Under the pieces are notes generated by a model that saw nothing but the letters and a program-made list of their open reading frames with translations, was not told where the DNA came from and did no database searches. Positions 12,030 through 31,457 of a DNA stretch of 32,000 bases are shown piece after piece. A program made the translations under genes and the position numbers. This DNA comes from Gemmata obscuriglobus (GTDB lineage Bacteria > Planctomycetota > Planctomycetia > Gemmatales > Gemmataceae), in contig NZ_CP042911.1 in the NCBI RefSeq assembly GCF_008065095.1, positions 7,620,001-7,652,000 on the forward strand, given 5' to 3'. How positions within the stretch are numbered: position 1 is the stretch's first letter; the number at the start of each line of letters is the position of its first letter.

Positions 12030-12060
12030 GCTTGTTACCCCTTCTCCTTTGCCACTAGTA

Positions 12061-12092: not shown

Positions 12093-12112
12093 GCCATTCT
12101 GGGCGAAGAAAG

Positions 12113-12142
12113 TTGAAGTGTGGATGAGTGACCAATTAGATT
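12113..12142 (+). promoter_or_regulatory. candidate rightward promoter
   Basis: TTGAAG (12113-12118), an 18-nt spacer, then TAGATT (12137-12142), upstream of the GTG at 12161. Confidence 0.25.
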
Positions 12143-12160
12143 TGTTAACGGGGACGTGTC

Positions 12161-12629: not shown

Positions 12630-12759
12630 GGTCCCACTCCTTTGGCCGACTCGACACCCGTTCACACGCGAACTGAACTCTAACCAACGATTCGCGCTCT
12701 GCCAACCGCCGTATGTGTTCCAAATGCTTTCGGAACACCCCGCTCAAAGGACACGCCCG

Positions 12760-13680
12760 ATGTTCGGACCGAACGCCAAGCCGCTTGACCTGTGCACCTG
12801 GTTCGTTCCCCACCTTGCGCGATCAATGGCTCTGTCAGGTTGCGACGAGATCGACGAGACCTACACGTGCGGCCCGTTCTCCATCACTTTCAAGGGGCGT
12901 AACGACGACATTGGGGCCGACCCGAGCTTGCCGCGAAAAGTCCGGCGAACATCGGATAAAGTGCAGGACGTGTACCGCGCGTTCGTGGCGATCTGGAACG
13001 ACCCGAACCGCCGGCCGGACCCGATCATGCCGAAGCCCATTCGGACCTGGCTGCTCGCCGAGTACGCTCGCGCAGAGCCGGACAAGACGCAGCGGAAAGA
13101 CGCCCCCCGGAGCAGTATTCAGCACGCGCTAAGCGATCTTCAGGAGCTTGGCATCATTCACCAGCACGGGGACGGCGGTTGGGTCATGGGTCCCCGGCCC
13201 GAGCCGAAACAGGGCACCATTACCGACGACGAGGGTGTTCCGAACGAAAACGGAACACATAGCCCACTTGAACAGGCGGCCACCATCACCCATGCTTCCC
13301 ACGTCGGCGGTGCGGATGTCGTGCCGCCGCGAACGGGAGCGCAGGACATGTTCGGTAAGCTGATCTGGGTGCCGGGCGAGAAGGACGACTTCGAGACGGG
13401 CGGGCTGGTGATCACCGACGACACCGGCACGAGTCACCTGGCCGAAGGGAAGCAAGAGCGGGTGCGGTACTCGGGCCGCACCGGACGGCCCGCGGCGCCC
13501 CTCGCGGTGCGGTGCGAACTGGTCACCGTCGACGACTCGGGGCGGCACAAGGTGGCGGTCGTCAAAATCAAGGGGCCGGAGGGCACCAAACAGATCCGCG
13601 TCCGCGTGCTGGGCGACTGGCAACTCGCGGGCCGCATGAGCGACCGCGAAGAGCCGGCCACACTCGCCGCGAGCAACTGA
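12760..13680 (+). CDS. hypothetical protein with winged-helix-like segment (306 aa), upstream of and overlapping the integrase start
   Basis: Internal ATG of track ORF 12532..13680 (MFGPNAKPLDLCTWF...); an alternative ATG is at 12724. IQHALSDLQELGIIHQHGDGGWVMG looks wHTH-like. Lower GC than its surroundings. Its TGA overlaps the integrase ATG. Confidence 0.6.
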   Translation: MFGPNAKPLDLCTWFVPHLARSMALSGCDEIDETYTCGPFSITFKGRNDDIGADPSLPRKVRRTSDKVQDVYRAFVAIWNDPNRRPDPIMPKPIRTWLLAEYARAEPDKTQRKDAPRSSIQHALSDLQELGIIHQHGDGGWVMGPRPEPKQGTITDDEGVPNENGTHSPLEQAATITHASHVGGADVVPPRTGAQDMFGKLIWVPGEKDDFETGGLVITDDTGTSHLAEGKQERVRYSGRTGRPAAPLAVRCELVTVDDSGRHKVAVVKIKGPEGTKQIRVRVLGDWQLAGRMSDREEPATLAASN

Positions 13681-14951
13681 TGGGGCGCGTTCACAGGAAG
13701 CAGTACACGAAGCCCATCCCCGCCGGGGCCGAGCGGGTCACGGTCAAGGGCGTGCCGTGCGTGCGCTGGCGCGGCAAGTCGAAGCAGTGGCAGGTGGGCG
13801 TCGTGCTGCCGGGCGGCCGGTGCCGCCTCGAATCGGCCAACTGGTACGTCACCTACTTCGACCACACCAAGGGCAAAGAGGTGACCGTTCCGGGATACGC
13901 CGACAAGGCGGCTTCAGAAGCGCTCCTCGCCCAGCTCGTCCGCACCAGCGCCCGCGTCGACGCGGGCCTGTTGCCCCCGGAAGCCGTCCGGCCCCGACTC
14001 TCGCTCACCGAACTCCTGGACCGCTGGCACCGCCACGTGAAGCACGGGGGCGCGTCGGACGAGGGCGCCCGCCGGCAGCGGCGGCACGCCCAGGCCGTGT
14101 GCGACGGGGTGAGCGCGGCCAAGCCGGCCGACCTGACGCCGTCGGCGGTCCTGGAGTGGATCGAGGCGCAGCGGGAGAGCGGCGGCCGATCGGGCGACGG
14201 CATCTCGGTCGGCACCGCCGCGAACTACATCGGCGCGGCCAAGTCCTTCACGCGCTGGTGCTGCGTCGTCGAGAAGTGCGAGCCGGTGGACCACCTGTCC
14301 GGACTCGAAAAGAGCGGCCCCGGGCCGGACGACCGTGTCCACGTCCGCCGATCGCTCTTGCCCGACGACCTGGACAAGCTCCTCGCGGCCGCCCGGGCGA
14401 GCACGGCGGAGGTGTACGGGCTCACCGGACCGGAGCGGCACGCGCTCTACCTCACGGCCTGCTCGACGGGGCTCCGCGCCTCGGAGCTGGCCCGCCTCAA
14501 GCCCGAGCACTTCGATTTGGTCGGCGCCACGGTTACCGTTCATCGGCCCGCGAAGACGAAGAAGCGAGCCACCGACGTGCTGCCGCTCGGCCCGGACGTC
14601 GTCGAGGCGCTCCGCCCGATCCTGGCCGCGGTGGGAAAGGGGACCGTCTGGCCGAACCGCGGCGCGGAGTCCCAGGCGTGGTGGCTGCTCGGCGCGCGGC
14701 TCATCCGCGCCGACCTGGTGGCCGCGGGCATTCCGCCGACCGCCCCGGACGGCCGGGTGTACGACTTCCACTCGCTCCGGGGCCAGTTCGCGACGGATCT
14801 GGACCGCGCTGGCGTCAGTCTGCCCCGCGCGCAAAAGCTGATGCGGCACTCGACGCCGGACCTCACCGCGAAGCACTACCACCGCCCGGAATCGGACGAG
14901 CTGGCCGCGGACGTGGCGAAGCTGCGCCGGGGCAAGCCGGCGGGCTCGTAG
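13680..14951 (+). CDS. int: tyrosine-type site-specific integrase
   Basis: Internal ATG of track ORF 13512..14951 (MGRVHRKQYTKPIP...). C-terminal catalytic signature ...HSLRGQFATDL...LMRHSTPDLTAKHY (HxxR...Y). Adjacent to a tRNA 3' end. Confidence 0.9.
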   Translation: MGRVHRKQYTKPIPAGAERVTVKGVPCVRWRGKSKQWQVGVVLPGGRCRLESANWYVTYFDHTKGKEVTVPGYADKAASEALLAQLVRTSARVDAGLLPPEAVRPRLSLTELLDRWHRHVKHGGASDEGARRQRRHAQAVCDGVSAAKPADLTPSAVLEWIEAQRESGGRSGDGISVGTAANYIGAAKSFTRWCCVVEKCEPVDHLSGLEKSGPGPDDRVHVRRSLLPDDLDKLLAAARASTAEVYGLTGPERHALYLTACSTGLRASELARLKPEHFDLVGATVTVHRPAKTKKRATDVLPLGPDVVEALRPILAAVGKGTVWPNRGAESQAWWLLGARLIRADLVAAGIPPTAPDGRVYDFHSLRGQFATDLDRAGVSLPRAQKLMRHSTPDLTAKHYHRPESDELAADVAKLRRGKPAGS

Positions 14952-15080
14952 CTTGCCGGCAAGCTTGCCGTCCGTTCGTGATTCCCGGTGCGTCTCAGTG
15001 AACAATCGGACATGCAAGCTGAAGGTGCGGAACTATGGTAATCCGCTTGATTTCGGTGCGAATCGCTTGGTTTTCAAGAG

Positions 15081-15152
15081 TGGGTCCGGTGGGAGTCGAA
15101 CCCACTTCCAAGGTGTTATGAGCACCCTGCTCGACCGTTGAGCTTCAGACCC
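15081..15152 (-). tRNA. tRNA-Met (CAT; elongator Met or lysidine-modified Ile2 cannot be distinguished by eye)
   Basis: Manual cloverleaf: GGGTCTG AA GCTC AACGGTC GAGC A GGGTG CTCATAA CACCT TGGAA GTGGG TTCGACT CCCAC CGGACCC A. No CCA; trailer is CTC. The 3' end faces the integrase. Confidence 0.85.
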
Positions 15153-23338: not shown

Positions 23339-24256
23339 CTACTCCAGGTCCCACACCACCACGTCGCCGGTGGCAGAACCGGCCGCAGCGAGACTGCCGT
23401 CCGGGCTGACCGCGATCGCACTCAGTCGGTCGAGTTGCCAGGTGTACCGATTGGTGCGGTCAAGGGTGTCGGCATCGAACTCGTTAACCGTTTCGTCGTT
23501 GCTCGTGACGAACAGGCGCCGCCCGTTCGGGTGGTACGCGAGGGCGGTGAAGTGCTTGCGGTTGTCGTTGCGCGTCAGCCGCGGGGCACCGCCGGCGGGC
23601 AGTGACCAGGAGAGCAGCGTCATTCCGTGAATGCCGACCACCGCCGCACCGGTCGGGCGGAACCACAGCTTCCCCGCGTAGCTGTACGGGTACGTGCCGT
23701 CGCTCAGGCCCGCCGACGAGGACAGGTCGCGCACCTCCAGGCGCATCGGCTGGTCCCACCAGCGCCCCGGGGCCGCCGGACGGGTCAGCATCGCGAACCG
23801 GTCTCCCGACGGCGAGATGGTCACGCTCTCGACGGACAACTCGCGCGTGGACAGCACCCACTGGCGAACCCAGTCGCCGTCTTTGAACTGCCACCCGGCG
23901 AGAAAGTGGTCCGGCATCCCGTGGCTCGAAACGATCCGGTCGCCGGCGGGGCCGACCTTCCAGACCGTGGCCGTGGTCAGGAACGATGGGTACTCGTTGG
24001 TCGCGTCGCGCTCGTCACGGTCGTAGACTCGGTACCCGGTAGCGAGTTGCCACTCCAACCGGCGCCCGGTGGCGGAGAACCGTAGGCCCCCGGCCCGGTA
24101 CTTCCCCCCCAGGTCCAGACGCACCGGGGCAATGTTGGGTGAGTCGAGGTTCCAGAGGAACACGTGCGCCCCGTCCACGGCGGCGGCGACGGCGCGACTG
24201 TCCGGGCTGAACGCCAGGTCGAGCACCTCCGCAGAAGCCGTTTTCAGGACGAGCAT
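23339..24256 (-). CDS. WD40/beta-propeller repeat protein
   Basis: Track ORF 23339..24256. Repeated ...SPDG/SPSG...hydrophobic...W(D/N)L motifs. Ends GSATGDVVVWDLE. Confidence 0.75.
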   Translation of the reverse strand: MLVLKTASAEVLDLAFSPDSRAVAAAVDGAHVFLWNLDSPNIAPVRLDLGGKYRAGGLRFSATGRRLEWQLATGYRVYDRDERDATNEYPSFLTTATVWKVGPAGDRIVSSHGMPDHFLAGWQFKDGDWVRQWVLSTRELSVESVTISPSGDRFAMLTRPAAPGRWWDQPMRLEVRDLSSSAGLSDGTYPYSYAGKLWFRPTGAAVVGIHGMTLLSWSLPAGGAPRLTRNDNRKHFTALAYHPNGRRLFVTSNDETVNEFDADTLDRTNRYTWQLDRLSAIAVSPDGSLAAAGSATGDVVVWDLE

Positions 24257-24324
24257 ACCCTTCCCCCACCGGGAACCTTAACTCGCGCCGCGCCCCCGCG
24301 CCAGAGGGGCGGCGCGAATCGGGG

Positions 24325-25179
24325 TCAGTCGTCCACGTCCCAAACGAGCGCGCCGGCACGACCGGCCGCCGCGGCGCACTGCCCGTTCTGATCAAACGCC
24401 ACAGCGTACACCGGGCCGAGGTCCCACTGAAACGTGCGCAGCGGCGGACCGGAGCCGGCCGCGTCCCACACGGCCACCGTGCCATCGATCCCGCCGGTCA
24501 CCACGCGCCGGCCGTGCGGTGCGAACGCCACCGACAGCCACCCGCCGTGCGTGCGCGCGTACCGATCGACCACGGCGGCGCGAGTTGGGAGGTGCCACAC
24601 CGAGAGGTTGCCGAGCGCGAGAACGGCCGCGAGGTCGCCGTCGGCCGAGCACGCGATTCGGTGCGGGCACCCAGAGACCGGAATCTGGTGCCCCGTGCCG
24701 CCCGATTCCGGTAGCACCGTAATGCCCTCCTCGCTCGCCACCAGAAGCCGCGAATCGCCCGTAAATGCTGCGTCACTCGCTGTGAAAATGTTGTGCCGCC
24801 GCCGCACGACCGGAACCGCGCCGCGCAGGCCCCAAGTGGTCACCACCGCCCCGACCGTTGCCAGACTACTGCCGTCGGGCGAACAGACCGCACGGCTCGA
24901 TCGCGGGAGGTCGCCTTGGAGGGACAGGGGGGCGCCCGCGCTCGCGAACTCGAAAACGAATGCTCGTTCGGTGGTCGCCAGCACGAGCCGACCGGCCGGG
25001 GTGAACTGCACCCGGATCACCGTCGCCGAAAACGGACCGACCCGCCGCGATGGGAGCGACGGCGCGTGCAGGTCCCAGAAGTCAACCGCAGAGCCGAGGC
25101 CACCCGCCGCCAGCCAGCGACCGTCCGGCGAAAACGCGACCGTGTAGTGAGGCTGACCGGACGGCGGGAGCTGGAGCAT
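24325..25179 (-). CDS. WD40/beta-propeller repeat protein
   Basis: Track ORF 24325..25179. VAFSPDGRWLAAGGLGSAVDFWDL, GGIDGTVAVWDA. Tandem with the previous gene. Confidence 0.75.
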   Translation of the reverse strand: MLQLPPSGQPHYTVAFSPDGRWLAAGGLGSAVDFWDLHAPSLPSRRVGPFSATVIRVQFTPAGRLVLATTERAFVFEFASAGAPLSLQGDLPRSSRAVCSPDGSSLATVGAVVTTWGLRGAVPVVRRRHNIFTASDAAFTGDSRLLVASEEGITVLPESGGTGHQIPVSGCPHRIACSADGDLAAVLALGNLSVWHLPTRAAVVDRYARTHGGWLSVAFAPHGRRVVTGGIDGTVAVWDAAGSGPPLRTFQWDLGPVYAVAFDQNGQCAAAAGRAGALVWDVDD

Positions 25180-25347: not shown

Positions 25348-26769
25348 TCACACCTCGATCTTCTTCCACTTTCCGCTTGCGAACCGCAGTGCGAAAAAGG
25401 TCCCCCGCAGCCACAGGTCGGCGCACATCGCGACCCACGCGCCCAGCAGGCCCATGTCCGCACCTCGGACCGTCCCGAGCGGGCCGAGATCCACCTGCGG
25501 GGCGGTCATCAGGTACGCCAGCGGAATCCGCACGCCCAAGAACCCGAGCCAACTGAACAGCACCGGCACGCGCGCGTCGCCGGCCCCGCGCAGCGCGGCG
25601 GTAAAAATGATCTGACTCGCCAGAGCCGGCATCGCGCACGCGATCAGCCGCAGCGCCGGTGCGCCGGTGTCGACGATGGGTTGCAGGTCGGCGCCCGGAC
25701 AGAACACCTTGAACATCGGTTCCGCCAGGAGCACGAACAGCACGCCCATGCAGCACATGAGCCCCCCGCCGATCGCGAACGCCACCCACACGCTCCGGGC
25801 GGCGCGGTCCGGGGTGCGGGCGCCCAGGTTCTGCCCCACCAGTGTCATCGCAGCGGTGCCGAACGCCGCCCCGGAGAGGAACCCGAGGGCTTCCCAGCGC
25901 AGCGCGATCCCGTGCGCGGACGCTGCGGTGTCGCCGAGCCGGTTCACGATGCTGAGGAACCACAACTGGCAGAACGCGGCCGACAGGCTGTCGATCGCGG
26001 CCGGAACGCTGACCCACAGCAAACGCCGGATCAGGCCGGTATCGGGAACCAAGTTGGCGAGGTGCAGCTTCAGCCCCGACCGGCCGCGCGAGAGAATGAC
26101 GAGTAGTGTGATGCACCCGATTACGTGACTGAGCCCCGTGCCCAGTGCGATCCCGATGAACCCGAAGCCCCGGAACGGCCCGAACCCGAAGCACAGCCCC
26201 CACGCCAACGGCACGTTCAGCACGGCCACGAGCCCGAGCACCTTCAGCCCGGTGCGCGTGTCCCCGGCGCCCGCGAGGCACGCGGCGCACGCGGACTCGG
26301 TGATTTGGAACGCGAGAAGGGCCGCCAGGGGCGTCAGGAACTCGACGCACACCCGCGCCGCGTCGCCCTCGAGCTTCAGGGCGCGGATCAGGTCCGGCAG
26401 CCCCACCAGTGCCGCGACCGCGCCCACAACGCCGAACACAACGGCCAAAACGATGGACTGGCCGGCGGCCCGGTTGGCGAGTGCGAAGTCCCGCGCCCCA
26501 ACGAAACGGGCCACAAGGGCGGTGCTCCCGACGCTGACCAGAACCGTGTAGCTCGACACGAACCAGTACAGGTATCCGGCCGTGTTCAACGCAGACAGGT
26601 ACCCGACCCGGGCCGCCGGATCGGATACCTGAAATCGTCCCGCGAGAAACTGGTCGGAGAGCTGCACGACGAGGTGCAGGTATTGCTGTGCAAGCGCGGG
26701 CAGAGCGAGGACGAGCACCTGCCGCCCGAGCGGGCGAGATAGCGCGTCCTGCGGAGCCGATGTGTCCAT
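25348..26769 (-). CDS. MATE-family multidrug/toxic-compound efflux transporter
   Basis: Track ORF 25348..26775 (GTG); ATG at 26769 is preferred. About 12 hydrophobic segments. N-terminal LALPALAQQYLHLVVQLSDQFLAG is typical of MatE. Confidence 0.85.
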   Translation of the reverse strand: MDTSAPQDALSRPLGRQVLVLALPALAQQYLHLVVQLSDQFLAGRFQVSDPAARVGYLSALNTAGYLYWFVSSYTVLVSVGSTALVARFVGARDFALANRAAGQSIVLAVVFGVVGAVAALVGLPDLIRALKLEGDAARVCVEFLTPLAALLAFQITESACAACLAGAGDTRTGLKVLGLVAVLNVPLAWGLCFGFGPFRGFGFIGIALGTGLSHVIGCITLLVILSRGRSGLKLHLANLVPDTGLIRRLLWVSVPAAIDSLSAAFCQLWFLSIVNRLGDTAASAHGIALRWEALGFLSGAAFGTAAMTLVGQNLGARTPDRAARSVWVAFAIGGGLMCCMGVLFVLLAEPMFKVFCPGADLQPIVDTGAPALRLIACAMPALASQIIFTAALRGAGDARVPVLFSWLGFLGVRIPLAYLMTAPQVDLGPLGTVRGADMGLLGAWVAMCADLWLRGTFFALRFASGKWKKIEV

Positions 26770-26816
26770 GCCCACATCTTAGTGACCGCGGCGCCGACCG
26801 CCGGTCGCCCCAACCC

Positions 26817-27200
26817 TTACTTCTTGGCGGTCTTCCGGCGGGTCTTGGCGACGGCAGCGGTCGGCGACACCGGCGGCGCCTCGGGCTTGGCCCGAAGCAC
26901 CACCCGGAAGCTCCCGAGCATCAGCACCCCGAGCACGTCGGGCGTGGTTCCCGGGGTGAAGATGTCCGGCCGCAGCCGGTAAATCACCCGGCGCCCGTCC
27001 TTCTCGTCTTCCAGCACGCCCGCCTGCCGCATCACCCCGAGATGGTGCGACATGTTGACCATCTTAATCTTCACTAGTTCTGCAAGGTTCCCGACGTGTT
27101 CGGGGCCTTTGGCCAACTGCCACAGGACACGCAGACGGGTCGGCTCGGCCACGGCGGCGAGCAGCGCGGCCACCTTGCGAGCTTCGGCAAACTCGGTCAT
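26817..27200 (-). CDS. ArsR/SmtB-family transcriptional regulator
   Basis: Track ORF 26817..27218 (GTG); ATG at 27200 is preferred. LLAAVAEPTRLRVLWQLAKGPEHVGNLAELVKIKMVNMSHHLGVMRQAGVLEDEKDGRRVIYRL is the HTH_20 pattern. Confidence 0.85.
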   Translation of the reverse strand: MTEFAEARKVAALLAAVAEPTRLRVLWQLAKGPEHVGNLAELVKIKMVNMSHHLGVMRQAGVLEDEKDGRRVIYRLRPDIFTPGTTPDVLGVLMLGSFRVVLRAKPEAPPVSPTAAVAKTRRKTAKK

Positions 27201-27481
27201 TTCGGCACCAGTGGACACCGCAACCTGCGGCGAGGGCGGGCAATTTGTGGAGTTGAAATAGTATAGATCGAAATGGCGTCATGCCACCGTCCAAACGGAA
27301 ATAGGAATGAATTGAGCCGCTTGGGGGCGGTGCATTTGCGTCGTTCGGACGGATCGGTAATGTGGTACAAGAATGAGGGCCGGCAGGAGTCGCACCCGCA
27401 TGTCCCGAGGTACGAACGCGGTGCCTTTCTGTGTCGTGCCACACTGGCGAATGATCTTGGAGGTAAACATTCGCTCTGTGG

Positions 27482-27498
27482 TGGGCAAAATTTGCCCA
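27482..27498 (-). terminator. 17-nt palindrome just 3' of the last tRNA of the array (possible terminator or protein-binding site)
   Basis: tgggcaaaatttgccca is a perfect palindrome 24 nt downstream of the tRNA-His 3' end. No clear U-tract follows. Confidence 0.25.
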
Positions 27499-27522
27499 TC
27501 ACTGCTTCATTCGTGCTCACAG

Positions 27523-27595
27523 GCGGCGCGGGGGGAGTCGAACCCCTCACCTGGGCCGTCACAGGGCCACGTGCTACCGCTACACCACATGCCGC
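27523..27595 (-). tRNA. tRNA-His (GTG)
   Basis: G-1 + CGGCATG TG GTGT AGCGGTA GCAC G TGGCC CTGTGAC GGCCC AGGTG AGGGG TTCGACT CCCCC CGCGCCG C. G-1:C73 is the His hallmark. One A5-C68 mismatch. No CCA. Confidence 0.75.
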
Positions 27596-27680
27596 ATCGC
27601 AAGAACTGAAGAATCCTCCGACCGACCGCTCCGGTTCAAAGCCGCGCGCGCGGCGTTCCGATTCGCGATTGTCAGTTGAG

Positions 27681-27754
27681 TGATCCCGGGTGGAATCGAA
27701 CCACCGACCTCCTCCGTGTCAGGGAGGCGCCTTGAACCACTGGGCCACGGGATC
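27681..27754 (-). tRNA. tRNA-Val (GAC)
   Basis: GATCCCG TG GCCC AGTGGTTCA AGGC G CCTCC CTGACAC GGAGG AGGTC GGTGG TTCGATT CCACC CGGGATC A. No CCA. Confidence 0.85.
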
Positions 27755-27847
27755 GACCGTTCGAGCGCGGAACGTAGCGTGCAGGGTTCGGAGCGTTCGC
27801 ATCTTACGTTCCGAACCCCGCGCGATACGTTCCGCGCGACCTTCAGG

Positions 27848-27936
27848 CGGAGGGGGTGGGATTCGAACCCACATACCCGTTTAAGGGCAACCGCTTTAGC
27901 AGAGCGGCCCGGCCAAGCCGTATCCGGCTCCCGTCC
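27848..27936 (-). tRNA. tRNA-Ser (GCT), class II
   Basis: GGACGGG AG CCGG ATACGGCTTGG CCGG G CCGCT CTGCTAA AGCGG, long variable arm TTGCCCTTAAACGGGTAT, then GTGGG TTCGAAT CCCAC CCCCTCC G. C4-C69 mismatch in the acceptor stem. Confidence 0.7.
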
Positions 27937-27984
27937 GTCGGCCCGCTCAAGTGAGCGGGCGGTGATCGGCGCGCGTGCGGCGAG

Positions 27985-28040
27985 TGCGGGGTGCGGAACT
28001 AACCCCAGTCGGCCGGACCTTTGGTAAGCCCGCACCCCGC
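27985..28040 (-). pseudogene. tRNA-like remnant (56 nt) lacking a D arm, CCA anticodon-like loop
   Basis: GCGGGGT ... ACCCCGC A forms a perfect 7-bp acceptor-like helix. Inside it are GGGCT TACCAAA GGTCC and a degenerate T region (GGGGTTAGTTC). Confidence 0.4.
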
Positions 28041-28065
28041 GCCCGCCGCACGCGCACCGATCGAG

Positions 28066-28137
28066 TGGACCCGCCGGGAGTCGAACCCGGGCTGCCGGCA
28101 TGCCATACCGGCGTCATCCCGCCTAGACCACGAGCCC
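28066..28137 (-). tRNA. tRNA-Ala (GGC)
   Basis: GGGCTCG TG GTCT AGGCGGGA TGAC G CCGGT ATGGCAT GCCGG CAGC CCGGG TTCGACT CCCGG CGGGTCC A. The G3:U70 Ala identity pair is present. Confidence 0.8.
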
Positions 28138-28177
28138 ACAGCAACAGGAGTCCGGCCCGGTGCGCCCCGAACTCCAG

Positions 28178-28245
28178 TGGAACCGCGGGGAGTCGAACCC
28201 CGTGGCCGTGCTTGCAAGGCACAGCCCTCGCCCGCGAGCGATCCC
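28178..28245 (-). tRNA. tRNA-Ala (TGC) with shortened D-arm region (68 nt)
   Basis: GGGATCG [CTCGCGGGCGAGGGC] TGTGC CTTGCAA GCACG GCCA CGGGG TTCGACT CCCCG CGGTTCC A. G3:U70 is present. Only 15 nt lie between the acceptor and anticodon stems. Confidence 0.55.
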
Positions 28246-28326
28246 GTTTGACGAGCTTCGAGTTCGGGTTCCGAGTTGAGAGCGGCGCCGATTCGCGCCC
28301 CAACTTGAAACCTGGAACCCGCTGAG

Positions 28327-28408
28327 TGACCTCGGTGGGAGTCGAACCCACACGCCTCGCGGCAGCCGGCTCTCAACCGACTCTGGCTACCAGTTACAGC
28401 ACGAGGTC
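28327..28408 (-). tRNA. tRNA-Leu (GAG), class II
   Basis: GACCTCG TG CTG TAACTGGTAGC CAG A GTCGG TTGAGAG CCGGC TGCCGCGAGGCGT GTGGG TTCGACT CCCAC CGAGGTC A. Confidence 0.85.
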
Positions 28409-28467
28409 ATTCGTCGCGAGCGGTGTCGTGAACGAACCGTCCGTTCACGACGCACCGCCACCAACAG

Positions 28468-28549
28468 TGGCCCAGGAGGGAGTCGAACCCTCACGCCTTA
28501 CGGCACCGGCTTCTGAGACCGGGGTGACTACCAGTTCCACCACCGGGCC
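28468..28549 (-). tRNA. tRNA-Leu (CAG), class II
   Basis: GGCCCGG TG GTG GAACTGGTAGT CAC C CCGGT CTCAGAA GCCGG TGCCGTAAGGCGT GAGGG TTCGACT CCCTC CTGGGCC A. Confidence 0.85.
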
Positions 28550-28575
28550 AACGTTCGCGCCGCTGCGGCGCGGAG

Positions 28576-28644
28576 TCGCGGAGCCTGGGACTCTAACCCA
28601 GCAACCGGGCATATGAAACCCAGCCGAGCGCCTGCCCGCCCGCG
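28576..28644 (-). tRNA. degenerate tRNA-Met-like (CAT): short D region, non-canonical T loop, acceptor bulge; possibly a pseudogene
   Basis: CGCGGGC [GGGCAGGCGCTCGGC] TGGGT TTCATAT GCCCG GTTG CTGGG TTAGAGT CCCAG GC(T)CCGCG A. The T loop lacks the TTCRA consensus. Confidence 0.4.
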
Positions 28645-28662
28645 AAACATCAGCTCGTCCAG

Positions 28663-28730
28663 TTGCGGGCCTCAGAGTCGAACTGAGCAGCCAGGCTTAT
28701 GAGACCCGGCCGAGCTCCGGCCCGCCCGCA
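28663..28730 (-). tRNA. tRNA-Met-like (CAT) with shortened D-arm region (68 nt)
   Basis: TGCGGGC [GGGCCGGAGCTCGGC] CGGGT CTCATAA GCCTG GCTG CTCAG TTCGACT CTGAG GCCCGCA A. Paralogous to 28576-28644. Confidence 0.5.
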
Positions 28731-28745
28731 ATCGTTTCGGTCCAG

Positions 28746-28820
28746 TGGTGACGGTGGGATTCGAACCCACACTGTCCACGTTCTGAGCGTGGCGACTCCT
28801 GCCAGTTGGTCTACATCACC
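28746..28820 (-). tRNA. class I (short variable arm) tRNA with Leu anticodon CAG
   Basis: GGTGATG TA GAC CAACTGGCAGGA GTC G CCACG CTCAGAA CGTGG ACAGT GTGGG TTCGAAT CCCAC CGTCACC A. The cloverleaf is well formed, but the variable region is only 5 nt. Confidence 0.7.
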
Positions 28821-28873
28821 TCATCAAACCTGCGGCGGCTCGACCGCCGCGCCGGCCGCTCTCGCGCCGGCAG

Positions 28874-28946
28874 TGACCCGTGGGGGAATCGAACCCCCGT
28901 TTACAGGTTGAGAACCTGTCGTCCTGAACCGCTAGACGAACGGGCC
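28874..28946 (-). tRNA. tRNA-Glu (CTC)
   Basis: GGCCCGT TC GTCT AGCGGTTCA GGAC G ACAGG TTCTCAA CCTGT AAAC GGGGG TTCGATT CCCCC ACGGGTC A. Confidence 0.85.
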
Positions 28947-28983
28947 GTATATCACACGCTCACATCACAACCGTCTCATCAGG

Positions 28984-29056
28984 CGACTCGTACGGGAGTT
29001 GAACCCGTGTCTCCAGGTTGACAACCTGACATCTTGAACCGTTAGACGAACGAGCC
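28984..29056 (-). tRNA. tRNA-Asp (GTC)
   Basis: GGCTCGT TC GTCT AACGGTTCA AGAT G TCAGG TTGTCAA CCTGG AGAC ACGGG TTCAACT CCCGT ACGAGTC G. G73 discriminator. Confidence 0.8.
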
Positions 29057-29090
29057 GTTAGTTCCCGGTCTGTACCCAACTCCTAACAAG

Positions 29091-29175
29091 TGCCCCGGGT
29101 GGGAATCGAACCCACATTGTCCGTGAGGACGGCTGCTTTACAGGCAGCCTGGCGGCCCACCGCGCGTCCGGAGGC
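29091..29175 (-). tRNA. tRNA-Tyr (GTA), class II, irregular acceptor/D region
   Basis: GCC(T)CCGG ... GCTGC CTGTAAA GCAGC CGTCCTCACGGACAAT GTGGG TTCGATT CCCAC CCGGGGC A. The acceptor pairs perfectly only if one T on the 5' strand is bulged. I could not fold the D arm canonically. Confidence 0.6.
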
Positions 29176-29195
29176 GTAACCGTCGGTCGTCGGAG

Positions 29196-29269
29196 TAGCA
29201 CGGGAGGGATTCGAACCCACACGCACCAAGGTTTGAGCTTGGCCGCACTCCCGGTTGGCGTACCGTGCC
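29196..29269 (-). tRNA. class I (short variable arm) tRNA with Leu anticodon CAA
   Basis: GGCACGG TA CGC CAACCGGGAGT GCG G CCAAG CTCAAAC CTTGG TGCGT GTGGG TTCGAAT CCCTC CCGTGCT A. 5-nt variable region. One U-U mismatch in the T stem. Confidence 0.65.
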
Positions 29270-29364
29270 ACACGATCATTGCGACATTCGGAACACGGAG
29301 TTCGGAATCAAGAACTCGAACACAACACCGATCAACTCACTCCGCTGATACACCCGCTCAGCCA

Positions 29365-29435
29365 AGCCCTCGGCGGGAATCGAACCCGCGCGTCCGTCAT
29401 ACCAAAACGGCAAGCTGCCACTACATCACAAGGGC
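29365..29435 (-). tRNA. tRNA-Thr (GGT)
   Basis: GCCCTTG TG ATGT AGTGGCA GCTT G CCGTT TTGGTAT GACGG ACGC GCGGG TTCGATT CCCGC CGAGGGC T. Mismatch at 11:24 in the D stem. Confidence 0.75.
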
Positions 29436-29491
29436 CGTACATATCACGTCTTCAACTTCATGTTCCGAACCCCTCGTTCCGAATTCGGGAG

Positions 29492-29562
29492 AGCGCCCAG
29501 CGGGAGTCGAACCCGCACATCCGCCATGGCAAGGCGATAGGCTACCGCTACATCATGGGCGC
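29492..29562 (-). tRNA. tRNA-Gly (GCC)
   Basis: GCGCCCA TG ATGT AGCGGTA GCCT A TCGCC TTGCCAT GGCGG ATGT GCGGG TTCGACT CCCGC TGGGCGC T. U73 discriminator. Confidence 0.8.
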
Positions 29563-29585
29563 GTATCAATCACATCACAAACCAG

Positions 29586-29659
29586 TGGAAGCGGTGGGAA
29601 TCGAACCCACGTACACCTGCTTAAGAGGCAGGCCCCTAGCCAACGTCGGACACACTTCC
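29586..29659 (-). tRNA. tRNA-Lys (CTT)
   Basis: GGAAGTG TG TCCG ACGTTGGCT AGGG G CCTGC CTCTTAA GCAGG TGTAC GTGGG TTCGATT CCCAC CGCTTCC A. Confidence 0.85.
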
Positions 29660-29678
29660 GGCTCGCCCTCGCGGGCAG

Positions 29679-29751
29679 CGGTCCACACGGGAGTCGAACC
29701 CGCACCCTTCCGCTCGACAGGCGGCTGCTCTACCAACGGAGCTTCTGGACC
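29679..29751 (-). tRNA. tRNA-Asp (GTC), second and structurally different copy
   Basis: GGTCCAG AA GCTC CGTTGGTA GAGC A GCCGC CTGTCGA GCGGA AGGGT GCGGG TTCGACT CCCGT GTGGACC G. Mismatches at 7:66 and 27:43. Confidence 0.7.
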
Positions 29752-29771
29752 GTACACGTCACTTCGACCAG

Positions 29772-29853
29772 CAGGTGGCGGAGGAATCGAACCCCACAGG
29801 ACGGAGCCGTCGGTTTTGGAGACCGAGTGCGTTCCCAGACGCGTTCACCACCT
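29772..29853 (-). tRNA. Trp-like tRNA (CCA) with 13-14-nt variable region and irregular D arm (82 nt)
   Basis: AGGTGGT(G) AACGCGTCTGGGAACGCAC TCGGT CTCCAAA ACCGA CGGCTCCGTCCTG(T) (T)GGGG TTCGATT CCTC(C) (C)GCCACCT G. A1:U72, G73 and the anticodon arm resemble tRNA-Trp. An alternative fold has an 8-bp acceptor and a 4-bp T stem. Confidence 0.6.
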
Positions 29854-29864
29854 GTAATTCCCAG

Positions 29865-29937
29865 TACCCCGTGCGGGAGTCGAACCCGACCTAAGCGGCT
29901 TGAAAGACCGCCGACCTCACCGGAAGTCGAACGGGGC
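29865..29937 (-). tRNA. tRNA-Glu (TTC)
   Basis: GCCCCGT TC GACT TCCGGTGA GGTC G GCGGT CTTTCAA GCCGC TTAGG TCGGG TTCGACT CCCGC ACGGGGT A. Mismatch at 49:65. Confidence 0.8.
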
Positions 29938-30368
29938 GTTCCCGTGTCGTCCGCCCCCCGGCCACAAAACGAAACCGGCCGGGGGTCGCTTGTACCCCCG
30001 GCCGGCGCGGTCGCCACTCACATGGCTCGCCAGGGGTTCATCCGCTCGTATCGCTCAGACCGCTCAGAGCCGCTTCGACTTCGACTTCAAGACGCGCGGC
30101 CGTATCAAGACCCAGACCTAACGCATAACCCGCTTCCCAACCGGCCGCGAGATACGTCGCCTTCGCGGCGACGGCATCACTCGTCGCTTGAAGTTCGGTG
30201 CTCGCGTGCCAGAGGGTCATGGTTGTATCGTGTGTAAGCTGTGATCCGTTGTTGTTGACCGCGGGGATTGTTGCCCCTCACTCGCGGTGTACGCTAGATA
30301 GACGCGGAACCTATAAGCGGGTTCGCACGAAACCGATTTTATTTTGTCCCCGTGTTGGGAACCGAACG

Positions 30369-31457
30369 GTGAGCGAGTTGGAACGCTGGATGCGGCACGC
30401 CCTGGCGCTGGCCGCCCGGGGCCGCGGGGCCGTCGAGCCGAACCCGATGGTCGGGGCGGTGGTGCTCGACCCGACCGGGAAGCCGGTCGGCGAGGGCTGG
30501 CACCAGAAGTTCGGCGGCCCGCACGCGGAGGTGTTCGCCCTTCAGGCCGCTGGGGCACGTGCCCGCGGCGGAACACTCCTCGTCACCCTTGAGCCGTGCT
30601 GCCACCACGGGAAAACGCCGCCCTGTACCGATGCGGTGCTGCGGGCCGGTGTGGCGCGCGTGGTCGCGGCGATGGCCGACCCCTTCCCGCGCGTCGCCGG
30701 GGGCGGGTTGGCGCTCCTCCGCGCCGCCGGGGTGGACGTTCAAGTCGGGTTGTGCGAAGCGGACGCGCGGGCGCTCAACGCGCCGTACCTGAAGTTGCTG
30801 AGCACCGGGCGCCCGTGGGTCCACGCAAAATGGGCCATGACGCTCGACGGCAAGCTCGCGGCCCGGACCGGCGACTCCAAATGGATCAGCGGTGCCGAGT
30901 CGCGCCGGCGCGTCCACGAGTTGCGCGGGCGGCTCGACGCGATCCTCGTGGGGCGCGGAACGGTCGTCGCGGACGACCCGCTCCTAACGGCCCGGCCCGC
31001 GGGCGTGCGCGTGCCCGCGCGGGTGGTGCTGACCGCGTCCGGAGAGCTACCGGCGGCGTGTCAGTTACGCGCCACCGCGCGCGAGGCGCCCGTCCTCGTG
31101 TACACCGCCAACCCCGGAAAGCTCGGCGGGTGGGCCGCCGACGGCGCGGAGGTCGTCGGCTTCGGTGAGCTGACCCTCGACGCCGTTCTCGCGGATCTGG
31201 GCCGGCGGCGCTTCACAAACGTGCTGCTGGAGGGCGGCGCGGGGCTATTGGGGGCGGCTCGTGATGCGGACGCGATCGACGAGTTTCACGTGTTTATCGC
31301 GCCAAAGGTGGTCGGCGGAAGTGCGGCGCTGACGCCCGTCGGCGGTACGGGCGCCGCGCGGATGGCGGAGGCGCTGACGCTCGAAGGGGTGACGTTCGAG
31401 CCGTCCGGCGCGGACGTGTACGTCCACGGGTTCGCGCCGGGTCGGGTCGTTGTGTAA
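30369..31457 (+). CDS. ribD: bifunctional riboflavin biosynthesis protein RibD (pyrimidine deaminase / uracil reductase)
   Basis: Track ORF 30198..31457. GTG at 30369 is preferred (VSELERWMRHALALAARG...); an alternative ATG is at 30390. NPMVGAVV, HAEVFAL and TLEPCCHHGKTPPC form the CMP/dCMP deaminase zinc site. The C-terminal part is an RibD_C reductase region. Confidence 0.9.
   Translation: MSELERWMRHALALAARGRGAVEPNPMVGAVVLDPTGKPVGEGWHQKFGGPHAEVFALQAAGARARGGTLLVTLEPCCHHGKTPPCTDAVLRAGVARVVAAMADPFPRVAGGGLALLRAAGVDVQVGLCEADARALNAPYLKLLSTGRPWVHAKWAMTLDGKLAARTGDSKWISGAESRRRVHELRGRLDAILVGRGTVVADDPLLTARPAGVRVPARVVLTASGELPAACQLRATAREAPVLVYTANPGKLGGWAADGAEVVGFGELTLDAVLADLGRRRFTNVLLEGGAGLLGAARDADAIDEFHVFIAPKVVGGSAALTPVGGTGAARMAEALTLEGVTFEPSGADVYVHGFAPGRVVV

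Follow-up and report, generated by a model that had tools for sequence, protein, structure and literature searches.

The tRNA array and its surroundings

Within the analysed window, a 32,000-nt stretch of the Gemmata obscuriglobus genome, default ARAGORN settings yield 19 tRNA genes between 27522 and 29937, all on the minus strand; a 20th, the second of two genes with a CAT anticodon (28578–28644), appears only at -ps90. Number, strand and order match exactly those read earlier from the sequence alone (the sequence-only reading), as does the dense packing: spacers measure 10–128 nt (from default ARAGORN coordinates) and the 2.4-kb operon holds 8.3 tRNA genes per kb, with two further tRNA genes only in the other 29.6 kb of the window. 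The locus, listed in the direction of array transcription, comprises the following features.

30369–31457, plus strand: ribD (Pfam), divergently transcribed, syntenic anchor
29864–29937, minus strand: tRNA-Glu(UUC), array gene 1, 7-bp D stem with CGGU tetraloop, 41 bits
29771–29853, minus strand: tRNA with CCA anticodon (Trp-83), 8-bp acceptor and 4-bp T stem, long variable arm
29678–29751, minus strand: tRNA-Asp(GUC), ordinary cloverleaf
29585–29659, minus strand: tRNA-Lys(CUU), ordinary cloverleaf
29491–29562, minus strand: tRNA-Gly(GCC), ordinary cloverleaf, weak D stem
29364–29436, minus strand: tRNA-Thr(GGU), ordinary cloverleaf, weak D stem
29195–29269, minus strand: tRNA-Leu(CAA)-75, class I, short variable region, A73, RF00005 43.6 bits
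29092–29175, minus strand: tRNA-Tyr(GUA), class II, UGGG tetraloop in the D arm, 5' acceptor strand with a conserved 1-nt bulge
28982–29056, minus strand: tRNA-Asp(GUC), Glu-like body
28873–28946, minus strand: tRNA-Glu(CUC)
28745–28820, minus strand: tRNA-Leu(CAG)-76, class I, A73, RF00005 55.5 bits
28662–28730, minus strand: mini-D tRNA(CAU), CAT-A (ARAGORN, alignment), 8 double changes
28578–28644, minus strand: mini-D tRNA(CAU), CAT-B, 1-nt bulge in the 3' acceptor strand
28467–28549, minus strand: class II tRNA-Leu(CAG)
28326–28408, minus strand: class II tRNA-Leu(GAG)
28177–28245, minus strand: mini-D tRNA-Ala(UGC), G3:U70, 8 double changes
28065–28137, minus strand: tRNA-Ala(GGC)
27964–28062, no strand assigned: hairpin (inverted repeat, 33-nt arms) between Ser and Ala(GGC)
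27846–27936, minus strand: tRNA-Ser(GCU)
27765–27837, no strand assigned: another inverted repeat, also long (arms of 32 nt), separating Val from Ser
27680–27754, minus strand: tRNA-Val(GAC)
27522–27594, minus strand: tRNA-His(GUG), G-1:C73
about 27375–27448, minus strand: decayed Thr(CGT), outside the span first described, located by local alignments to 8 orthologs
26817–27218, minus strand: arsR-family regulator (Pfam), co-directional, directly downstream of the array
25348–26775, minus strand: MATE efflux transporter, matE (Pfam), co-directional, downstream of the array

All array anticodons are ordinary sense anticodons, skewed to G/C-ending codons in a genome of 68–70% GC, and stop anticodons are absent from the array. 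An apparent CTA anticodon in a related array (L009) was rejected as an ARAGORN mis-registration, and the suggested reservoir of recoding tRNAs finds no footing in these anticodons. GTC, CAG and CAT each occur twice on different bodies, as had been noticed. The Leu(GAG) gene is of class I and 74–76 nt long in 11 of 15 aligned sequences. The genes do lack an encoded CCA; the encoded 3' end is N73-C-T in every Gemmataceae tRNA gene checked, inside and outside arrays alike, and on these sequences the trait is the norm of the lineage and not distinctive of the array.

What had been taken for a tRNA remnant between Ser and Ala is the 33-nt-arm hairpin; the 128-nt stretch containing it (27937–28064) folds at −104.7 kcal/mol (z = −11.9). 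Because the hairpin does not resemble the Arg(TCG) gene found nearby in relatives, it is no tRNA relic. In relatives, the gene orthologous to the decayed Thr(CGT) closes the array; in the window's copy the acceptor 3' strand is damaged, and ARAGORN makes no call there at default or -ps90 settings.

Eight array members have non-canonical folds

Non-canonical members number eight of 20, about 40%, in keeping with the six to eight (about one third) counted by manual folding. With covariance models, 14 of the 20 pass the RF00005 gathering score, Trp-83, Tyr-82 and Ser-91 match the tRNA-Sec model best but below its threshold (39.4 bits for Trp-83), and the two CAT genes and Ala(TGC) have no RF00005 match (Rfam). 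Consensus folds of the ortholog groups contain 19–26 pairs, up to eight of them with double changes, and very few unpaired cells.

Three tRNAs of about 68 nt (CAT-A, CAT-B and Ala(UGC)) have a mini-D plan in common, represented in CAT-A by a 7-bp acceptor, no 8/9 linker, a 4-bp D stem closed by an NGGN tetraloop, a 3-nt linker and a 4-nt variable region. In orthologs, 123 of 124 cells of the mini-D stem are paired, with two to five pair types per position. The window's copy of CAT-B has the T loop TTAGAGT, and its ortholog in L010 carries the anticodon GAU. Trp-83 combines A1-U72 and G73, which with the CCA anticodon are elements recognized by bacterial TrpRS, with a variable stem of only 2–4 bp. 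Its 8/4 fold is indicated by pair 8:75, G-C in nine of nine sequences; a 7/5 fold was rejected, the alternative pair 59:75 forming in none of the nine. The two short Leu tRNAs lack the long variable arm and have a Leu-type D loop and A73; Leu(CAA)-75 shows double changes at five pairs among 15 unique orthologs, and Leu(CAG)-76 at seven pairs with 0 of 231 cells unpaired. Conservation is strict in the anticodon loops, T loops (TTCGAnT) and discriminator bases of the odd members. Comparison of orthologs shows the eight to be conserved RNAs, their odd stems kept by compensatory substitutions.

At least two of these body plans, the mini-D tRNA-CAU and the class I tRNA-Leu, are shown by sequence comparison to belong to tRNA types found in clustered phage tRNA genes as well. 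The mini-D plan is present in at least 18 of 61 IMG/VR contigs having the same CAU anticodon arm, Leu(CAG)-76 shares 82–86% identity with short genes annotated as tRNA-Leu in Microcystis, Streptomyces and Erwinia phages, and Leu(CAA)-75 can be aligned to the 75-nt tRNA-Leu(caa) of Streptomyces phage Comrade.

The array is fixed beside ribD across Gemmataceae

Instead of the patchy, mobile distribution that had been considered, we find ribD next to the array in some 20 loci from Gemmataceae (Gemmata, Frigoriglobus, Fimbriiglobus and MAGs). Order and odd members, including the 69-nt CAT, the 75–76-nt Leu(CAG/CAA) and the 82–84-nt Trp, are the same in L001–L014, L020, L025, L046, L111, L264 and L265, and they are conserved between genomes whose RibD proteins are just 63–78% identical. 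(RibD matches of relatives start at residues 21–65 of the longest ORF; the JC717 gene encodes 362 aa.) From ribD, the layout runs through a promoter-like motif, a leader ORF, a terminator and the tRNA array to arsR-matE, and the comparison shows it to be inherited vertically across genera. arsR lies 3' of the array in 10 loci (L004, L006–L011, L013, L111, L265) and matE in nine of these, L008 having no tblastn match; neither is present in those loci without an array that were tested. The conserved neighbourhood holds no nuclease, toxin or tRNA-dependent transferase gene. Array size differs by genome, from 14 to 25 genes, and variation and decay are confined to individual members, such as the Thr(CGT) pseudogene here and the distal end, deleted in G. 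algarum strains JC673 and JC717.

G. algarum strains have 81–87 tRNA genes (PMC10817699) and Frigoriglobus has 83, and canonical, well-scoring tRNA(CAU) genes lie elsewhere in the window, at 9726 and 15080 (ARAGORN, Rfam). From these gene counts and CAU tRNAs we infer that the array comes on top of a complete housekeeping set. Gemmata and allied Gemmataceae would carry it as an auxiliary tRNA operon fixed in the chromosome, with 20 intact genes and one decayed gene in the window. That such an array had not been described in a planctomycete, as the sequence-only reading believed, is true only in part: two surveys already place the phylum among those with tRNA arrays, without describing them (PMC4758250, PMC8421152).

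A conserved leader region precedes the array

Between ribD and the first tRNA gene, four elements were identified.

30290–30326, minus strand: promoter-like motif GCGAACC-N14-GCGTCT-N7-GTA, upstream of the leader
30038–30220, minus strand: leader ORF MTLWHASTELQ...SDTSG*, 60 codons plus stop
30029–30037, minus strand: proposed antiterminator 5' strand ACCCCUGGC, directly after the leader stop codon
29965–30006, minus strand: intrinsic terminator (terminator scan), 12–13-bp GC stem, 7-nt loop and U-run

The promoter-like motif, whose core AAC-N16-CGTC has what we take to be ECF-sigma-like spacing, occurs once in the window against 0.01 expected, and once each in 18 of 265 fetched loci, always at the same position. 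A similar motif stands directly 5' of the single canonical tRNA-Glu(UUC) that L015 and L016, relatives without the array, have beside ribD; leader and terminator are absent there. Both are present in L020, whose first array gene is Gly.

An ORF of 17–64 codons occupies the leader position in all 19 related loci that cover the array 5' end. Differences by codon position (2.0/3.3/4.3, compared with about 6/6/6 in the 5' UTR) and 12 invariant peptide columns indicate that it is translated; a protein search returned 17 clusters, all annotated as hypothetical. We compared its codons with the array anticodons in the eight arrays that span the 5' end to Val or beyond, taking local codon usage as expectation. 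Anticodons of the array can read 86–95% of leader codons versus 59–74% expected in six of the eight, and 71–73% versus 57–59% in L005 and L009, a modest enrichment among orthologs that are not independent samples.

The terminator ends 27 nt before the first tRNA and has a predicted energy of −30.6 kcal/mol (−27 to −42 kcal/mol across loci; RNAfold). In every locus, a hairpin with U-run precedes the first tRNA by 0–45 nt; in several the U-run abuts the tRNA and therefore leaves no room for a separate promoter. The hairpin sequence as such is generic in GC-rich DNA, just two of 120 metagenome matches adjoining arrays. The distance from leader end to terminator 5' strand is 27–32 nt in 17 sequences (the window and 16 loci), and L020 and L111 are arranged alike. 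ACCCCUGGC is complementary to 29994–30002, part of the terminator 5' strand, and the resulting helix is predicted at −14 to −27 kcal/mol in orthologs where RNAfold input is restricted to the antiterminator segment. In the alignment, 93.8% of antiterminator and 98.3% of terminator cells are paired, the latter with two double changes among 15 sequences. Both elements are highly conserved, and covariation comes essentially from one divergent locus, L046, where column 57 covaries with column 18 (antiterminator) and column 75 (terminator).

A model of attenuation and its alternatives

The leader ORF, terminator and antiterminator lend support to the earlier idea of a stress-specific reservoir, and the arrangement may well reflect ribosome-mediated attenuation of an auxiliary tRNA set, a reading to which we give an even chance. 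Transcription would start at the conserved motif near 30290 and then meet the strong intrinsic terminator 27 nt ahead of the first tRNA. A leader ribosome reaching the stop codon would cover ACCCCUGGC, allowing the terminator to form and keeping the array off. Were the ribosome slow, stalled or absent, for which scarce charged tRNA, damaged tRNA or ribosome-targeting antibiotics are candidate triggers, ACCCCUGGC could pair with GCCGGGGGU in the terminator 5' strand, and polymerase would continue past the terminator into the array and perhaps further, into arsR-matE. Processing of the polycistron would fall to RNase P and a 3' endonuclease, with CCA added as for all tRNAs of the lineage. Because the leader contains no run of regulatory codons, is long (17–64 codons) and has a peptide more conserved than a pure 'sampler' would require, it could instead encode an arrest peptide or a micro-protein with a function of its own.

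Constitutive expression of a housekeeping operon, with an unrelated micro-gene, a hairpin serving as leaky terminator or RNA-stability element, and everyday tRNAs for abundant codons, is unlikely. Such an operon would agree with the single chromosomal site across genera, with anticodons that fit the preferred G/C-ending codons and with the similar promoter-like motif serving an ordinary tRNA-Glu(UUC) in relatives without the array. It would not lead one to expect, in every locus, a hairpin of −30 to −42 kcal/mol with a U-run so close to the first tRNA, a stop codon of conserved position relative to the competing helix, 81–87 tRNA genes per genome, eight members off the canonical fold, or members lost or deleted between close strains.

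That the odd members escape use by the ribosome, as decoys or resistant substitutes for anticodon nucleases or as donors for tRNA-dependent non-ribosomal enzymes, with the canonical ones merely co-transcribed, is rather improbable, and compatible with the attenuator model, not opposed to it. Phage tRNA clusters, too, contain mini-D CAU and class I Leu tRNAs, phage tRNAs counter tRNA-cleaving defences (PMC10264068, PMC11464382, PMC11555353), and some irregular 8/4 tRNAs are charged yet not used in translation (PMC5389517). The strict conservation of anticodon loops, T loops and discriminators is, however, that expected of decoding tRNAs, and the conserved neighbourhood offers no enzyme or toxin for such a role.

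Deliberate mistranslation or recoding, through charges that do not match the anticodon (a serylated 8/4 CCA tRNA, for instance, or a short 'Leu' charged otherwise), appears very unlikely. [quoted passage not shown] A decaying, horizontally acquired cluster with pseudogenes as odd members, as the sequence-only reading had allowed, is scarcely tenable and for the array as a whole contradicted by sequence comparison: the Thr(CGT) pseudogene, the mutated T loop of CAT-B, the distal deletion in G. algarum and the affinity to phage tRNAs are outweighed by order and odd folds kept beside ribD across genera at 63–78% RibD identity, with abundant compensatory change and hardly a broken pair.

Two further considerations count against the attenuation model. 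Transcription and translation are reported to be spatially separate in G. obscuriglobus (Gottshall 2014, as cited in PMC6212462), and a strict separation would preclude ribosome-mediated attenuation; and if the array Glu(UUC) were the sole such gene, the operon could not be wholly off. The L-array of Anabaena, which is induced by translational stress (PMC8421152), provides a precedent for an inducible array in Gemmata. If attenuation does operate here, the array would give Gemmata and its relatives an inducible second decoding set for their most-used G/C-ending codons.

Composition of the tRNA array

With default settings, ARAGORN reported 21 tRNA genes in the window, 19 of them crowded on the minus strand at 27522–29937; the 20th member of the array is a second CAT gene (28578–28644), recovered with -ps90 and backed by its orthologs. 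The resulting order (His, Val, Ser, Ala, Ala, Leu, Leu, CAT, CAT, CAG, Glu, Asp, Tyr, CAA, Thr, Gly, Lys, Asp, CCA, Glu) matches exactly that of a sequence-only reading of this DNA, which had described a dense single-strand array of 20 genes. The genes occupy 2,416 bp (8.3 per kb), are all co-oriented on the minus strand and are separated by spacers of 10–128 nt, and a terminator scan detected no intrinsic terminator within the array. Its size and density are those of a tRNA array unit (at least 20 genes, at least 2 per kb; Tran et al, 2016, PMC4758250), and its co-orientation and spacing, fit for one operon, are those of an L-array (PMC8421152).

Fourteen of the 20 genes passed the RF00005 gathering threshold. 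CAT-A (28662–28730), CAT-B (28578–28644), Ala(UGC), Trp-83 (the CCA-anticodon tRNA at 29771–29853), Tyr-82 and Ser-91 fell below it, in agreement with the earlier estimate that about a third of the members are structurally non-canonical; the covariance models thus fold 14 members, and not all 20, as standard tRNAs. For the CCA, Tyr and Ser genes the top Rfam model was tRNA-Sec, at sub-threshold scores, and the two CAT genes and Ala(TGC) had no RF00005 match. In the combined tally of canonical and non-canonical genes, eight of 20 (~40%) depart from the standard fold, and the other 12 are ordinary cloverleaves with occasional conserved mismatches.

None of the array genes encodes CCA, as the sequence-only reading had noted, but this does not set the array apart: an N73-C-U(-N) trailer follows all Gemmataceae tRNA genes checked, in or out of arrays, including two tRNA(CAU) genes elsewhere in the window (9726 and 15080), which rules out the lack of CCA as a peculiarity of the array. 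At the DNA level the discriminator is followed by C-T and sometimes by C-C-T (window genes 9726 and 15080; L010, L032, L054, L066 and others; L numbers denote fetched loci from genomes, MAGs, metagenome or phage contigs). The C-T signature is perhaps a determinant of 3′ processing.

The stretch 27964–28062 between Ser and Ala(GGC), previously taken for a tRNA remnant, is a hairpin with 33-bp arms that bears no similarity to the Arg(TCG) gene of the relatives, which rules out a tRNA relic. It is one of two near-perfect long hairpins in the array spacers (27964–28062, 33-nt arms; 27765–27837, 32-nt arms, between Val and Ser), and the 128 nt around it fold with −104.7 kcal/mol. The spacer hairpins may serve as RNase III processing sites or be palindromic elements that inserted there. 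The octamer TTCGGAAC occurs six times in the window against 0.97 expected; four of the six sites (27808, 29287, 29462 and 29476) lie in spacers of the 2.4-kb array, often within local inverted repeats.

Conservation of the array beside ribD

The array is flanked by the following genes:

start 30369, divergent from the array: ribD
25348–27218, co-directional with the array, on the other flank from ribD: ArsR-family regulator and MATE transporter

Among ribD loci fetched from species-representative genomes, the array lies directly upstream of ribD in G. algarum, in the Gemmataceae isolate CJuql4 and in many MAGs labelled Gemmata, Frigoriglobus, Fimbriiglobus or Gemmataceae; it is further present in the metagenome contig L111, in JC717 and in a Logan assembly. 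The order is kept throughout, running from Glu-UUC, Trp, Asp, Lys, Gly, Gly, Thr, Leu-CAA, Tyr, Asp, Glu-CUC and Leu-CAG in the first half to CAT, CAT, Leu, Leu, Ala, Ala, Ser, Arg, Val, His and Thr-CGU in the second, with 14–25 genes per array. Beside ribD, more distant Gemmataceae lack the array and carry at most a lone canonical tRNA-Glu(UUC) (L015 and L016). RibD of the window is 96% identical to that of G. algarum JC673, and the G+C content of the window is ~70%; with the leader peptide described below, the RibD identity marks the source of the window as closely related to G. algarum. Downstream, arsR is syntenic in ten array-bearing loci (L004, L006–L011, L013, L111 and L265) and matE in nine, with no matE match in L008, the genes lying on the same strand as the array; the array-less relatives tested had neither gene next to ribD.

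In both G. algarum strains, JC673 and JC717, a deletion has removed the distal end (Val, His, arsR and matE), and the last gene, Thr(CGU), survives in the window only as a damaged copy (~27375–27448). Conserved order together with the distal deletions and the damaged Thr(CGU) indicates that the array is stable as a unit while single members are dispensable. The array is old and inherited, vertically fixed across genera, rather than a recent import. The proposal that it is a decaying acquired cluster is rejected by synteny, conserved order and the covarying odd folds described below, and the patchy distribution expected of a mobile array is not seen.

G. algarum strains have 81 and 87 tRNA genes (PMC10817699), against 17–20 in the array. 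Frigoriglobus has 83, and more than 60 genes are left in these genomes when the 17–21 array genes are subtracted. From these high totals, the canonical CAU tRNAs elsewhere in the window (9726 and 15080) and the strain-level losses, we infer that the array is supernumerary to the housekeeping tRNA set.

Two neighbouring regions deserve description in their own right. Two adjacent WD40 ORFs at 23339–25179 (305 and 284 aa) are fragment-like and resemble a single sigma70-WD40 protein (1,182–1,348 aa) that adjoins the array in the G. algarum strains. A prophage-like or integrative element occupies 1–15152, 12 kb from the array and unrelated to it, and contains:

765–2972: ParB-N protein
3646–4347: phage metallopeptidase
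4298–6775: PrimPol/DUF3987 primase
8154–9722: AAA_24 protein
13512–14951: tyrosine integrase, abutting the 3′ end of tRNA-Met(CAU) at 15080–15152

A search of the window for an att repeat belonging to the integrase-linked element found none. The element also carries an initiator-like tRNA(CAU) (9726–9798) with a GGG/CCC anticodon stem, yet with a C1-G72 pair.

Conserved non-canonical folds

Orthologs were assigned to each window gene, aligned and folded into consensus structures. These comprise 19–26 pairs, of which up to eight show changes on both sides, and broken cells are nearly nil: Leu(CAG)-76 has seven double changes with 0/231 unpaired cells, CAT-A eight with 1/308 and Ala(UGC) eight with 3/230. 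The odd members are hence conserved with double changes rather than pseudogenes, the exception being Thr(CGU), which has decayed here and lies outside the span of the 20 genes. The array and its odd members are very probably conserved functional RNAs.

Three genes, CAT-A, CAT-B and Ala(UGC), share a plan of 68 nt up to the discriminator, which we call mini-D. A 7-bp acceptor is followed, with nucleotides 8/9 absent, by a 4-bp D stem, an NGGN tetraloop and a 3-nt linker; the anticodon arm is normal, the variable region has 4–5 nt and the T arm is normal. Across 31 unique sequences, 123 of 124 cells of the mini-D stem are paired, and each position shows two to five kinds of pair. Ala(UGC) keeps G3:U70. 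A conserved single-nucleotide bulge interrupts the 3′ acceptor strand of CAT-B, and its ortholog in L010 has the anticodon GAU, which hints that CAT-B may have isoleucine (lysidine-type) identity.

In Trp-83 and its orthologs (82–84 nt) the acceptor has 8 bp and the T stem 4 bp, and the variable arm is long. All nine sequences have G-C at pair 8:75, and the pair that a 7/5 fold would require is present in none of them; within the array Trp-83 alone shows the 8/4 split of the 12-bp acceptor branch (PMC5389517). A1-U72 and G73 are kept; the D arm is ordinary (4-bp stem, 6-nt loop) and the anticodon stem has 5 bp, and Trp-83 thus lacks the tRNA-Sec-like D arm and longer anticodon stem of allo-tRNAs. 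Two Leu genes, Leu(CAA)-75 and Leu(CAG)-76, belong to class I, with a 5-nt variable region in place of the long variable arm of class II tRNA-Leu, and retain A73 and a Leu-type D loop; the Leu GAG gene is class I in 11 of 15 aligned sequences. In Tyr the 5′ acceptor strand has a conserved bulge and the D loop is a UGGG tetraloop, and Glu(UUC) has a D stem of 6–7 bp closed by a CGGU tetraloop.

Several further peculiarities were seen. The body of the second Asp(GUC) (28982–29056) is nearer to the neighbouring Glu(CUC) (28873–28946) than to the other Asp and has a Glu-type D arm (TTCGTCTAnCGGTTCA), which suggests that it may be a duplicate made within the array whose anticodon and discriminator later shifted. 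Thr(CGU), the last array gene of the relatives (L004, L006–L011 and L013), has a UGCGAAN T loop with G for U at 55 and a long D loop with no obvious GG, making it a further non-canonical conserved member. An apparent amber-suppressor Ser in L009 proved to be an ARAGORN mis-registration.

Comparison with known tRNA arrays and unusual tRNAs

Like tRNA array units and L-arrays (PMC4758250; PMC8421152), the Gemmata array has at least 20 co-oriented genes at more than 2 per kb, apparently offers isodecoder redundancy rather than new anticodons, occurs in hosts with a high tRNA total and is apparently supernumerary. Whereas L-arrays are sprinkled by HGT or carried on a plasmid, it occupies a fixed chromosomal site inherited vertically across genera, and it has no linked homing endonuclease or mobile gene. 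Also unlike L-arrays, it has conserved non-canonical folds in ~40% of its members. The Anabaena PCC 7120 trn operon is silent until induced by translational stress (Santamaria-Gomez et al, 2021, PMC8421152); its promoter has direct repeats, whereas control in Gemmata is apparently by a leader-ORF attenuator. The sequence-only reading knew of no such array in planctomycetes. This holds for descriptions, which are absent from the surveys of array-bearing phyla, but not for occurrence, as the same surveys name Planctomycetes (PMC4758250; PMC8421152). The taxonomic papers on Gemmataceae that were consulted give tRNA counts only.

Some of the odd members have counterparts in phage tRNA clusters. 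Scanning IMG/VR with the CAT anticodon arm returned 61 contigs, of which at least 18 carry a mini-D tRNA with 0–1 nt at 8/9; these contigs have 35–62% G+C, and most of the genes lie within phage tRNA clusters. Mini-D tRNA(CAU) loci include L209, L221–L223, L226, L228, L229, L234, L235, L238, L239, L242, L244, L248, L250 and L260; CCA is usually encoded, and L206 and L208 look Gemmataceae-type with an ACT trailer. Leu(CAG)-76 is 82–86% identical to annotated 75–78-nt phage tRNA-Leu genes (Streptomyces phage Comrade, Microcystis phage Mwe-JY26 and Erwinia phages), and Comrade also has a 75-nt tRNA-Leu(caa). A low-GC phage mini-D tRNA used as BLAST query had no match among GenBank phages, and the class I Leu D-arm pattern found nothing in the viral scan. 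The clusters resemble the array in being dense, in mixing canonical and odd genes and in their identical mini-D plan and CAU anticodon arm. They differ in that phage copies mostly encode CCA and the array genes never do, and the flanks in Gemmata are chromosomal rather than phage.

Because a BLAST search with the whole array returned no phage record matching more than one array gene, the array is not a recent phage insertion, and with single-tRNA matches only, none of the phage records qualifies as a donor. Judged by sequence and fold, the unusual members are tRNA types that circulate in phage clusters, and an ancient phage-like source of the array is plausible.

Animal mitochondria have a tRNA-Leu without the long variable arm, and to our knowledge there is no other cellular example of class I tRNA-Leu; such genes are annotated in phage genomes. 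Animal mitochondrial tRNAs also have reduced D arms (PMC7609411), and the array shares with them shrunken D arms, a reduced acceptor-to-D linker and tRNA-Leu without a long variable arm. The array tRNAs nevertheless keep the T arm and a G18G19-like GG, and their host, a free-living bacterium, presumably has a complete set of canonical tRNAs besides. Allo-tRNAs, or (8/4) tRNAs (Mukai et al, 2017, PMC5389517), are matched in the 8/4 acceptor/T branch and long variable arm of the CCA tRNA, in D arms that resemble those of tRNA-Sec by a long stem or a tetraloop (Glu(UUC), Tyr and the mini-D genes), and in polycistrons of irregular tRNAs; unlike them, Trp-83 has an ordinary D arm and an anticodon and acceptor that match Trp identity. 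Allo-tRNAs come from Clostridia, Proteobacteria and Acidobacteria, are often linked to toxin–antitoxin genes and have not been reported from Planctomycetes (PMC5389517). What is new here is a vertically fixed long tRNA array, largely of phage-type and non-canonical members, with a candidate translation-sensing attenuator.

A leader ORF and terminator upstream of the array

The same five elements lie between ribD and the first tRNA in every array-bearing locus. Three of them have the following positions in the window:

30220 to 30038, minus strand: leader ORF (60 codons here, 17–64 elsewhere)
30029–30037: 5′ strand of the candidate antiterminator
29965–30006: terminator

Furthest upstream, at about 30290, is the motif GCGAACC-N14-GCGTCT-N7-GTA, which occurs once in the window against 0.01 expected, and of 265 fetched loci 18 carry such a promoter-like motif, nowhere but at this position; its AAC-N16-CGTC core we take to be ECF-sigma promoter-like. 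A similar motif stands directly 5′ of the lone tRNA-Glu in L015 and L016. A 5′ UTR of ~70 nt, rich in A and C, leads to the ORF, whose peptide begins M-T/N-L-W-H-A-S-T-E-L and ends D-T-S-G-stop. The leader proteins form 17 clusters, all "hypothetical", with 12 invariant columns in common, and the peptide is 90% identical to that of Gemmata sp. JC717. Nucleotide differences at codon positions 1, 2 and 3 are 2.0, 3.3 and 4.3 and flat in the UTR at ~6; this third-position bias and the invariant peptide motif indicate that the ORF is probably translated.

The sequence ACCCCYGGC starts at the stop codon or 0–1 nt after it and is complementary to GCCGGGGGU, the 5′ strand of the terminator hairpin, 9 nt being common to both helices. 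The terminator itself, a 12–13 bp GC hairpin followed by a U-run, comes 27–32 nt further on and ends 0–45 nt 5′ of the first tRNA. With RNAfold the alternative helix has −14 to −27 kcal/mol against −27 to −42 kcal/mol for the terminator, in those orthologs whose fold could be confined to that segment. In a 15-sequence alignment, 98.3% of terminator cells and 93.8% of alternative-helix cells are paired. In L046 the shared strand has C in place of G, and both of its partners have G in place of C; covariation of the attenuator comes from this one divergent locus, the element being otherwise almost invariant. The equilibrium fold of the whole leader gives the terminator state only and is silent on kinetics. 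Leader and terminator are absent in L015 and L016, which have no array, and present in L020, where the first array gene is Gly and not Glu.

In six of the eight arrays that reach Val or beyond, 86–95% of leader codons are readable by array anticodons against 59–74% expected, and in the other two 71–73% against 57–59% expected from local codon usage. The first ten codons of the window leader are all readable, and the enrichment overall is modest. There is no tandem run of one regulatory codon.

Leader-peptide attenuators are known from the trp, his, leu and pheST leaders, and antibiotic-responsive leader-ORF attenuators precede resistance genes. The candidate shares with them a short upstream ORF, an intrinsic terminator and, in the predicted helices, a mutually exclusive antiterminator placed so as to be masked at the stop codon, with ~30 nt from stop to terminator. 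It differs in lacking a cluster of regulatory codons, in its long leader with a conserved peptide and in belonging to no Rfam leader family; known attenuators regulate amino-acid biosynthesis, aaRS or resistance genes, and this one would regulate tRNAs. We found no precedent in the literature searched for a leader-peptide attenuator on a tRNA operon. A T-box or other known leader RNA is ruled out by the lack of any hit to RF00230 or another Rfam leader family at E ≤ 10 over 27000–30600; the UGGC-containing segment is an arm of a small hairpin, and different hairpins stand there in L008, L009 and L012. Scanning metagenomes with the terminator pattern gave arrays at two of 120 loci and one new ortholog, L111: the hairpin sequence is generic in GC-rich DNA. 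In the soil contig Ga0210388_10061227 (L098) an unrelated 10-tRNA array (Ser, Ile, Glu, Asn, Asp, Val, Arg, Val, Arg, Arg) is followed by the same generic CCGGCCGGGGG hairpin.

Proposed regulation and significance

That the leader element gates the array as a ribosome-mediated attenuator has, in our judgement, about an even chance of being correct. A ribosome at the leader stop codon would mask the 5′ strand of the antiterminator, the terminator would form and the array would stay silent; if the ribosome were slow, stalled or missing, this strand would be free and RNA polymerase would enter the array. Read-through should depend on ACCCCUGGC, whose mutation is predicted to abolish it. The leader would then be a general elongation sensor, perhaps tuned to the isoacceptors that the array supplies, though its peptide is more conserved than a passive sensor would need.

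Of the two roles suggested in the sequence-only reading, a reservoir of recoding tRNAs is unsupported, and a stress-specific one is favoured by the leader ORF, terminator and candidate antiterminator, if these act as predicted. The arsR–matE pair and the ECF-like motif would fit a response to stress or antibiotics. The long array of Anabaena is induced by ribosome-targeting antibiotics (PMC8421152), and phage tRNAs can rescue translation from tRNA-cleaving defences (PMC10264068, PMC11464382, PMC11555353); that host-owned, inducible phage-type tRNAs might likewise rescue the translation of the cell is speculation. More tentatively than for the attenuator itself, we propose that it gates a phage-type, non-canonical tRNA operon as a domesticated backup decoding set, possibly co-induced with the MATE transporter and deployed when the leading ribosome reports failing translation, and that mini-D is an unremarked functional architecture common to bacteria and many phages.

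With its mini-D, 8/4 Trp, class I Leu and bulged-acceptor members, the array provides a natural set of non-canonical bacterial tRNAs that are conserved and covary. They bear on which tRNA structures RNase P, RNase Z, aaRSs, EF-Tu and the ribosome can accept, as well as on orthogonal-tRNA engineering and the purpose of phage tRNA clusters. Among long tRNA arrays a role has so far been proposed for that of Anabaena alone; here the regulatory logic is readable from sequence. If the model is true, a leader ORF monitors translation quality and the response is a larger supply of tRNA, which is directly testable in culturable organisms with genetic tools. Transcription and translation in G. obscuriglobus are described as spatially segregated (Gottshall et al, 2014, as cited in PMC6212462). 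[quoted passage not shown]
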